Shown: positions 10,039 through 10,094 of the stretch, piece after piece | Position numbering within the stretch: position 1 is the first letter of the stretch | How the letters are laid out: each line of letters opens with the position of its first letter | Sequence record: PQ571160.1 | From: Pseudomonas phage Cline | Strand: one strand, 5' to 3' | Length of the DNA: 37,265 nt | The notes under the pieces: generated by a model | The model's input: only the letters and a program-made list of their open reading frames with translations | Told to the model about the DNA's origin: nothing | Databases searched by the model: none | Program-made: the position numbers and the translations under genes

Positions 10039-10094
10039 CCGTTGAACCCCTTCCGCTAATCCCGCGTCGCACTCGCCGCCACGATGGCGGCATG
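10039..10094 (+). promoter_or_regulatory. Copy 1 of a conserved late promoter/leader motif. Begins 53 nt upstream of, and runs into, the first late ATG.
   Basis: CGTTGAACCCCTTCC...GCCGCCAcgATGGCGGCATG. A near-identical 56-bp element is at 19206..19261 with the same spacing to its ATG. See findings. Confidence 0.5.

Follow-up and report, generated by a model that had tools for sequence, protein, structure and literature searches.

Two D3112-like phage elements are candidate Mor-activated late promoters predicted to start transcription at the start codon

Introduction

The activator-dependent promoters of phage Mu are the closest described counterparts of the two elements analyzed here. At Mu Pm, the Mor dyad extends from -51 to -36 and is centered at -43.5, and the promoter has a -10 hexamer and no -35 hexamer (PMC4287176). 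The dyad, GCCGG-N5-CCGGC, replaces the -35 element; the promoter comes after a hairpin that ends the preceding operon and lies just downstream of the gene for its activator. Pm drives the C gene, which is the next step of the regulatory cascade, and its transcript has a leader with a Shine-Dalgarno sequence. Plys and PI, two of the Mu late promoters, precede the lysis genes and protease gene I, respectively. They have an upstream box with a C-rich core (cATAACCCC), a weak -10 hexamer, and no -35 hexamer. Transcription from PI starts ~29 nt upstream of the I start codon, which has an AGGA Shine-Dalgarno sequence; thus, Mu is not leaderless there. In the Mu PI and Plys sequence that we read, no inverted repeat was seen around the -10 hexamer.

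Leaderless mRNAs are usually poorly translated in Gamma- and Betaproteobacteria. Examples of such mRNAs include lambda cI transcribed from PRM, Tn1721 tetR, and many genes in Actinobacteria and Archaea. Typically, they have an ATG, not a GTG or TTG, at the 5' end, no Shine-Dalgarno sequence, and a -10 hexamer 6-7 nt upstream.

In the papers covered by our literature search, we found neither a mapped late promoter or 5' end nor a mention of the motif described here for D3112-like phages, and nothing relevant on leaderless late mRNAs in Mu-like phages. Published promoter predictions for PaMx73/H70 comprise six sites, and neither of the two late promoters is among them (PMC4378225, supplement 1). 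Strong acr transcription has been reported to interfere with downstream late-gene transcription, and repression by Aca1 to be critical for JBD30 (PMC9410906).

Here, we present an analysis of the window, i.e., the whole stretch of 37,265 nucleotides of Pseudomonas phage Cline (PQ571160.1). It was motivated by an earlier note on this DNA, which proposed that a motif present twice, and ending each time at the first ATG of a late transcription unit, represents Mu-type activator-dependent late promoters with a palindrome over the translation start that may add translational control.

Results

The window derives from a transposable Pseudomonas phage of the genus Casadabanvirus (D3112/MP29/DMS3 group). 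Its gene order corresponds to that of the near-identical phage MP29, and >120 phage records match the regions around both copies of the motif with 90-100% identity. The surroundings of the two copies are as the earlier note had described them: copy 1 follows a Mor-family gene and precedes the lysis and packaging genes, and copy 2 lies between the acr-aca1 island and the genes for protease, capsid, and tail (Table 1). The Mor-family gene is the only one in the window; among the plus-strand reading frames, there is no second Mor/C homologue. The acr promoter would, in this context, be a source of read-through transcripts into copy 2.

Table 1. Features at and around the two candidate late promoters
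Feature	Position	Strand	Details
Mor-family late transcriptional activator gene	9540..9989	+	Pfam PF08765 Mor E 8.8e-13; PHROG 836 'late transcriptional activator' E 6.6e-47
Two adjoining G+C-rich hairpins without T run	9990..10026	+	Directly 3' of mor stop codon
Copy 1 core dyad TTGAACCCCTTCCG	10042-10055	+	-50 to -37 if A10092 = +1
Copy 1 inverted repeat, 3-nt loop	10075..10091	+	GCCGCCA 10075-10081 / TGGCGGC 10085-10091
Copy 1 -10-like hexamer CACGAT	10080-10085	+	Followed by GGCGGC 10086-10091; both within inverted repeat
First late gene, 115 aa, heading the lysis/packaging/head block	10092..10439	+	PHROG 3648 over residues 1-115/115
acr promoter with Aca1 operator repeats, GGCACAATGTGCC type	18283..18330	+	Sequence is promoter p5 of PaMx73/H70 (PMC4378225, supplement 1)
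Anti-CRISPR island: AcrF2, AcrF31-like gene, aca1	18374-19039		Behind the known acr promoter
Copy 2 core dyad TTGAACCCCTTCCC	19208-19221	+	-51 to -38 if A19259 = +1
Copy 2 inverted repeat, 4-nt loop	19241..19258	+	GTCGCCA 19241-19247 / TGGCGGC 19252-19258, one T-G pair
Copy 2 -10-like hexamer CACCAT	19246-19251	+	Followed by 7-nt TGGCGGC 19252-19258; both within inverted repeat
Head maturation protease, Mu gene I homologue	19259..20365	+	Pfam Mu-like_Pro E 3e-102 from residue 27; PHROG 328 from residue 7

Several additional features were found around the two copies. The hairpins between mor and copy 1 have an RNA folding energy of -30.4 kcal/mol (z -3.95), which was equaled by 0 of 200 shuffles, and were not picked as a terminator by a consensus scan; they may attenuate or terminate the early transcript just ahead of the first late promoter. 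The first late gene is ORF19a in the annotation of MP29. MP22-type phages (L102 9574-9630, L104, and L105) carry a different first late gene; in these phages, the exchange boundary lies inside the promoter box, between CGTTGAA and GTCAATCATCTAATT, and the block of hexamer, inverted repeat, and ATG is retained. In the anti-CRISPR island, a small GTG-initiated reading frame (18661-18828) between AcrF2 and aca1 matches Pfam AcrF31 (E 6.8e-40), and aca1 is therefore accompanied by two anti-CRISPR genes in this island. The interval from aca1 to the protease promoter contains three copies of a near-palindromic 11-mer, (T)AACCCCGTTA(G), within 19077-19138 (AACCCCGTTAG sites), of which one is inverted (19077-19086) and two form a tandem pair (19117-19138); jointly, they could form a long hairpin. 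This 11-mer resembles the late-promoter box of one of the relatives (locus L078; CTAACCCCGTTAAAAG) and the Mu late box ATAACCCC. In another relative (locus L011), CCCGTTAAAT occurs twice at the equivalent place, and in Mu, the G-I intergenic region is the site of an annotated gyrase cut site.

Both sequences quoted in the earlier note are present in the window. They are intergenic, lie on the coding strand, and end at an ATG. Copy 2 spans 19206-19261 (56 nt); copy 1 had been placed one base too far upstream and spans 10040-10094 (55 nt), with 10039 being an extra C. The two copies share the identical 15-mer CGTTGAACCCCTTCC (10040-10054 and 19206-19220), for which we found no other match with up to three mismatches on either strand of the whole window. 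Measured from the first base of the 15-mer, the ATG is 52 nt away in copy 1; the 53 nt that had been stated for both copies apply to copy 2 alone. The additional base in copy 2 is a T (19252) immediately 3' of the hexamer (CACCAT-T-GGCGGC); this T is polymorphic, and many close relatives have CACCATGGCGGCATG, which lacks it. The spacing of dyad and -10-like hexamer does not differ between the copies (38 nt), which have TGGCGGCATGA as a second common block. The dyad of the window (TTGAA-N4-TTCC; TTGAACCCCTTCC) is imperfect, and its symmetry is limited to GAA-N4-TTC. An inverted repeat abuts both ATGs, in agreement with the earlier note; its 5' arm is GCCGCCA in copy 1 and GTCGCCA in copy 2.

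As also recognized previously, neither ATG is preceded by a Shine-Dalgarno sequence, whereas 35 of the 49 annotated plus-strand starts in MP29 have one. At the -35 position, the sequence is TAATCC (copy 1) or AACCGC (copy 2), and a promoter scan identified no consensus sigma-70 promoter at either element. Similarly, no terminator-like site was found on the plus strand at either element; the stems run into ATGA. Two candidate functions were ruled out, i.e., an intrinsic terminator, because the start-abutting hairpin has no T run, and an ECF-sigma type promoter (GAAC...CGT), because the spacing differs between the copies.

The ATG at 10092 gives a full-length match to its PHROG family. Going back from the conserved protease domain to the preceding stop codon, the reading frame contains a single ATG, GTG, or TTG, namely the ATG at 19259, and the N-terminus of the protease starting from it aligns with the N-terminus of Mu I. 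Based on these comparisons, we take both ATGs to be the true starts. Public annotations conflict at exactly these two positions. The protease start is placed 42 codons late in MP29 (L001 18828), MP22 (L102 18778), and DMS3 (L103 19163), thereby truncating the Pfam domain, and the first late gene was not called in DMS3 (L103 10159-10552); the annotations of Forsyth and YMC12/01/R960 use the upstream protease ATG. Farther downstream in the protease gene, GAGGAA precedes an in-frame GTG at 19787. In an alignment with Mu, this GTG coincides with the internal start of scaffold protein Z, and it is likely a separate scaffold start with a Shine-Dalgarno sequence.

To find a 15-mer repeated exactly is unremarkable in this G+C-rich window, where 21 distinct 15-mers occur twice compared with 2.6 expected under a first-order Markov model. 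Nor do the hairpins of the two copies exceed shuffled sequence in stability (z -0.9 and -0.5). Because of these two observations, the window by itself is insufficient to establish the finding, which rests on the position of the two copies and on comparison with relatives. Using a weight matrix that was built from other genomes and from which the window and its two closest relatives were left out, positions 10038 and 19204 ranked first and second among all window positions on both strands, with scores of 22.6 for copy 1 and 13.3 for copy 2; the next match scored 12.8, and copy 2 is thus narrowly separated. As for further copies, the matrix scan returned merely weak matches within genes, e.g., at 5794. 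Matches to TGGCGGCATG(A) at 24918 and 36894 are intragenic, have no dyad 50 nt upstream, and were treated as chance. The similarity between copies 1 and 2 could itself be due to chance or be a leftover recombination boundary without a regulatory role, as might be suspected from the abundance of exact 15-mer repeats and from the module boundary inside the copy 1 box of MP22-type phages. However, the ranking of both sites by a matrix from other genomes and the conservation of the plan in distant prophages at a fixed distance to the ATG, which is described below, already contradict this explanation, and we give it next to no credence.

Using the protease as the search handle, we collected relatives for comparison. 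The set consists of 19 viral contigs and, taken with flanks of 10 kb, 80 genome loci, in which the protein identity is 30-84%. The hosts include Pseudomonas, Comamonas, Acidovorax, Neptunomonas, Marinobacter, Methyloversatilis, Neisseria, and Chitinibacter. We read the sequence upstream of the protease start in ~85 loci, and most of them have the same plan, i.e., a lineage-specific box, a C-rich spacer, an nAnnnT hexamer (such as GACCAT, GACACT, TAATCT, GATCAT, or CACAAT), 6-7 G+C-rich bases (usually GGCGGC), and the ATG. In this conserved plan, the dyad begins 50-51 nt and the hexamer lies 6-7 nt upstream of the ATG, which is never replaced by another start codon, and there is no Shine-Dalgarno sequence. 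CACGAT and CACCAT in the window conform to nAnnnT, with A in the second and T in the sixth position. The largest box class is the clean dyad CTGAA-N4-TTCAG, and, judged by its sequence, TTGAACCCCTTCC of the window is a diverged form of this dyad.

The loci are related by descent; the following counts are therefore not independent, and P values are no more than indicative. A CTGAACCCCTTCAG-like dyad, defined by a minimum of 10 matches out of 14, is present in 48 loci. Of these, 42 have an in-frame ATG 49-52 nt from the dyad start, with a peak at 50-51, and all 42 dyad-anchored starts in the relatives are ATG. The ATG was picked by eye in about half of the protease set, a choice of which the dyad-anchored tests are independent. 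In an ATG-anchored profile of 41 unique sequences, the most constant positions include A at -11 (32/41), T at -7 (32/41), G at -6 (33/41), G at -5 (36/41), and C at -1 (39/41). Distant relatives keep the two-site arrangement, often with a third site, and each has its own lineage-specific box. The box of a given genome, taken as -55 to -30, recurs on the same strand, usually 7.5-9.9 kb upstream, where it precedes the first late gene, and often 4.7-10.4 kb downstream, where it falls in the tail region. In locus L078 (3620-3740), two units of box, hexamer, and ATG with the boxes CTAACCCCGTTAAAAG and CTGACGCCCGTCAA are arranged in tandem, in frame, and 66 nt apart upstream of the protease gene; they may be a duplicated promoter or provide alternative starts.

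CTGA-type dyads are present in 25 of the 25 loci with a homologue of the window's Mor, and TAAAGCGCTTTA-type or related boxes are present in 6 of the 6 loci in which the activator is closer to Mu Mor/C. Moreover, Pseudomonas prophages differ from one another in the box; because these differences occur within one host genus, the recognizing factor is expected to be phage-specific and not host-specific. Within Casadabanvirus, the four central bases of the dyad are exchangeable, with GTCA taking the place of CCCC in copy 1 of MP22, whereas TGAA and TC(A/C) are retained; this is how a spacer between two half-sites would be expected to behave. For several box classes, there is no Mor homologue within the fetched 10-kb flanks, and in the GGTCCTGGTTCCC and TTTTGCCCCCGTTCAAAAG classes, the genes adjoining the first late promoter are not Mor-like. 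The first of these observations could mean that the promoters are as described here but that the dyad is bound by another phage protein or by a host regulator. Because the box class tracks the activator clade wherever an activator was found, the boxes vary among prophages of one host genus, and the geometry fits that of Mor at Mu Pm (PMC4287176), we consider binding by a factor other than the Mor-like protein improbable.

We refer to 35 unique box copies that do not have an ATG at the predicted +1 as leadered copies; these were aligned by the upstream box alone. In all of them (35/35), an A-N3-T is found at one of three adjacent offsets, i.e., -11 in 19, -12 in 11, and -10 in 5 copies. The counts at other offsets are nearly all 0-4, with one downstream offset reaching 7. 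Because the leadered copies place the hexamer without the help of an ATG or a hairpin, the -10 is fixed independently. In the protease promoters, the hexamer lies 6-7 nt 5' of the ATG and, therefore, the expected start is the A of the ATG, following a C; the mRNAs should, on this sequence evidence, be leaderless or nearly so. With the ATG as the predicted +1, the dyad is centered at -43.5 in copy 1 and -44.5 in copy 2. Some leadered copies, most of them from the tail region, have an alternating (CG)4-5 run adjoining the -10 hexamer on its upstream side; they belong to relatives in Betaproteobacteria and, in some cases, Gammaproteobacteria (L053 16806, L060 16694, L075 797 and 16318, L077 16396, L028 15493, and L043 1207); the protease promoters have GCCGCC there.

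Among unique promoters with the ATG at +1, 62 of 96 have a perfect stem that comprises 5 bp or more and whose end falls at -1 to -3, compared with none of the 35 leadered copies and 13% of composition-matched shuffles. These counts strongly argue that the inverted repeat is real, under selection, and tied exclusively to promoters with the ATG at +1. There are >15 different arm sequences, each with a matching partner, including GCCGCC/GGCGGC, GGCCCC/GGGGCC, GCCCCGCA/TGCGGGGC, GTCGCACA/TGTGCGAC, and GCCGCCAGATT/AATCTGGCGGC. The loop is 3-11 nt long, the center of symmetry lies between ~-9.5 and -13.5, and the 3' arm always adjoins the ATG. The -10 hexamer is located in the loop in most lineages and in the 3' arm in Neptunomonas; because it keeps its distance to the ATG whatever its position in the stem, the hexamer and the stem are separate constraints. 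A covariation test in a fixed register (-18..-13 with -6..-1) was weakly positive (243 Watson-Crick cells versus 228 +/- 7 in column shuffles), with the limits that the stems lie in differing registers and that one arm type is dominant, and we used the per-sequence stem test instead. Mismatches in the arms comprise three G-T and three A-C and do not discriminate between RNA and DNA.

That the repeat is centered on the -10 hexamer in most sequences, and that G-T and A-C mismatches are equal in number, as for a constraint at the DNA level, could suggest an operator that overlaps the -10 and is recognized by a dimeric DNA-binding protein such as a late-gene repressor. However, the variable loop and symmetry center argue against a fixed protein operator, as does the diversity of the arms, and this idea comes without a candidate protein; we regard it as highly unlikely. 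It could also be imagined that transcription starts upstream of the inverted repeat, e.g., from GCTAAT/CGTAAC after the 15-mer, and that the hairpin controls translation from within a leader of 20-30 nt. Such a start would account for the invariable position of the 3' arm next to the ATG and for the complementarity that is kept across many arms and spacings, which would be expected of a nucleic-acid hairpin more than of a fixed site for a protein, and the CTGAA class does have a TAA(C/T) motif 3' of the dyad. Nevertheless, GCTAAT/CGTAAC is without A at position 2 or T at position 6, and the equivalent hexamer in other box classes is CAATAC or AAGAC. A start near -25 would, in addition, put the dyad at ~-25 to -12, which is a repressor position, as opposed to -43.5 for the Mor family (PMC4287176). 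Finally, the A-N3-T is present at -12 to -7 even in copies without an ATG and a hairpin, and there is no ribosome-recruiting feature in or near the loop. Altogether, we judge an upstream start to be unlikely.

Discussion

Based on their sequence and on the comparison with relatives, we think it probable that this D3112-like transposable phage uses the two elements as its two late promoters, that they are activated by Mor, and that they start transcription at the ATG. The earlier assignment to Mu-type activator-dependent late promoters is thus supported by the position of the elements, the shared plan, and the Mor gene, whereas the translational role assigned to the palindrome is not. We suggest the following model. 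A single Mor-family activator would bind TTGAA-N4-TTCC, centered ~43.5-44.5 bp upstream of the start and replacing a -35 element. Host sigma-70 RNA polymerase would then use a weak -10 hexamer, which is CACGAT in copy 1 and CACCAT in copy 2, and initiate 6-7 nt downstream of it, with the A of the ATG as +1 and a C at -1. As a result, the first late gene and the protease gene would be made from leaderless or nearly leaderless mRNAs, which would explain both the missing Shine-Dalgarno sequences and the fixed link between promoter and ATG. In this model, we infer the binding of Mor, the exact start, the leaderless translation, and the role of the hairpin.

The candidate promoters resemble Mu Pm in that a Mor/C-family activator is encoded just upstream, the imperfect dyad would take the place of a -35 element and, with the ATG as +1, have its center at the same position or, in copy 2, 1 bp away, there is a -10 hexamer, and the promoter comes after a hairpin following the preceding operon. 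However, the box is unrelated to that of Mu, and while Pm drives the next step of the cascade, the single activator of the window appears to drive the late genes directly; with only one Mor/C gene, the cascade seems one step shorter than that of Mu. In their genomic places, the elements match the Mu late promoters, and the third site that many relatives have before the tail genes completes the likeness to Plys, PI, and PP. They also share with the Mu late promoters an upstream box with a C-rich core (TGAACCCC in the window), a weak -10 hexamer, and the lack of a -35 hexamer. In contrast to Mu, the window has two copies only, and both are predicted to lack the leader that precedes gene I of Mu. 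Compared with known leaderless mRNAs, with which the window shares the 5'-end ATG (here predicted), the lack of a Shine-Dalgarno sequence, and the spacing of the -10 hexamer, the window case differs in that it concerns late structural and lysis operons under a dedicated activator and in that the start is coupled to an inverted repeat upstream of +1.

Because the -10 hexamer lies inside or between the arms and the predicted start is the ATG, the hairpin would be outside the promoter's own mRNA, making it unlikely that the palindrome controls translation of this transcript, as had been proposed. If the start is at the ATG, the stem acts as RNA on read-through transcripts alone, or else at the DNA level. 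We speculate that on read-through RNA, originating from mor, the first late promoter, or the acr promoter, the hairpin hides the ATG or protects the RNA end. One tentative possibility, which we would not favor over its alternatives, is that translation is gated by the promoter, such that the ATG is usable solely on Mor-started RNAs that begin at this ATG and is silent on read-through RNAs from the early operon, the first late promoter, the acr promoter, or host DNA beside a randomly inserted prophage. Were this so, synthesis of the full-length protease would be low and strictly late, with the scaffold being made from the internal start with its Shine-Dalgarno sequence. It would also explain the harm caused by unrepressed acr transcription, as read-through would block the promoter and could not replace it.

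The interference by acr transcription is what a promoter at 19206-19258 would predict. A Mor-dependent promoter located ~170 nt past the aca1 stop would explain the sensitivity of the late genes to acr read-through, and the start codon fed by this promoter is probably not usable by read-through RNA. Copy 2 offers a mechanism for the damage that acr read-through does to late gene expression (PMC9410906).

What the present analysis adds is the combination of a dyad at -43.5, a -10 hexamer, and an ATG at +1, linked exclusively with a start-abutting inverted repeat. The leaderless-promoter plan would explain why gene callers misplace or miss these two starts, and the rule of box plus hexamer can be used to fix the annotation of protease starts and to locate late operons in Mu-like prophages. 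The predicted leaderless late mRNAs would be unusual for Proteobacteria and unlike those of Mu. More generally, Mu-like prophages from both Beta- and Gammaproteobacteria share the promoter plan, and their box classes track the activator clade. For the D3112/DMS3/JBD30 group, the workhorses of anti-CRISPR research, the plan provides a testable map of late promoters.
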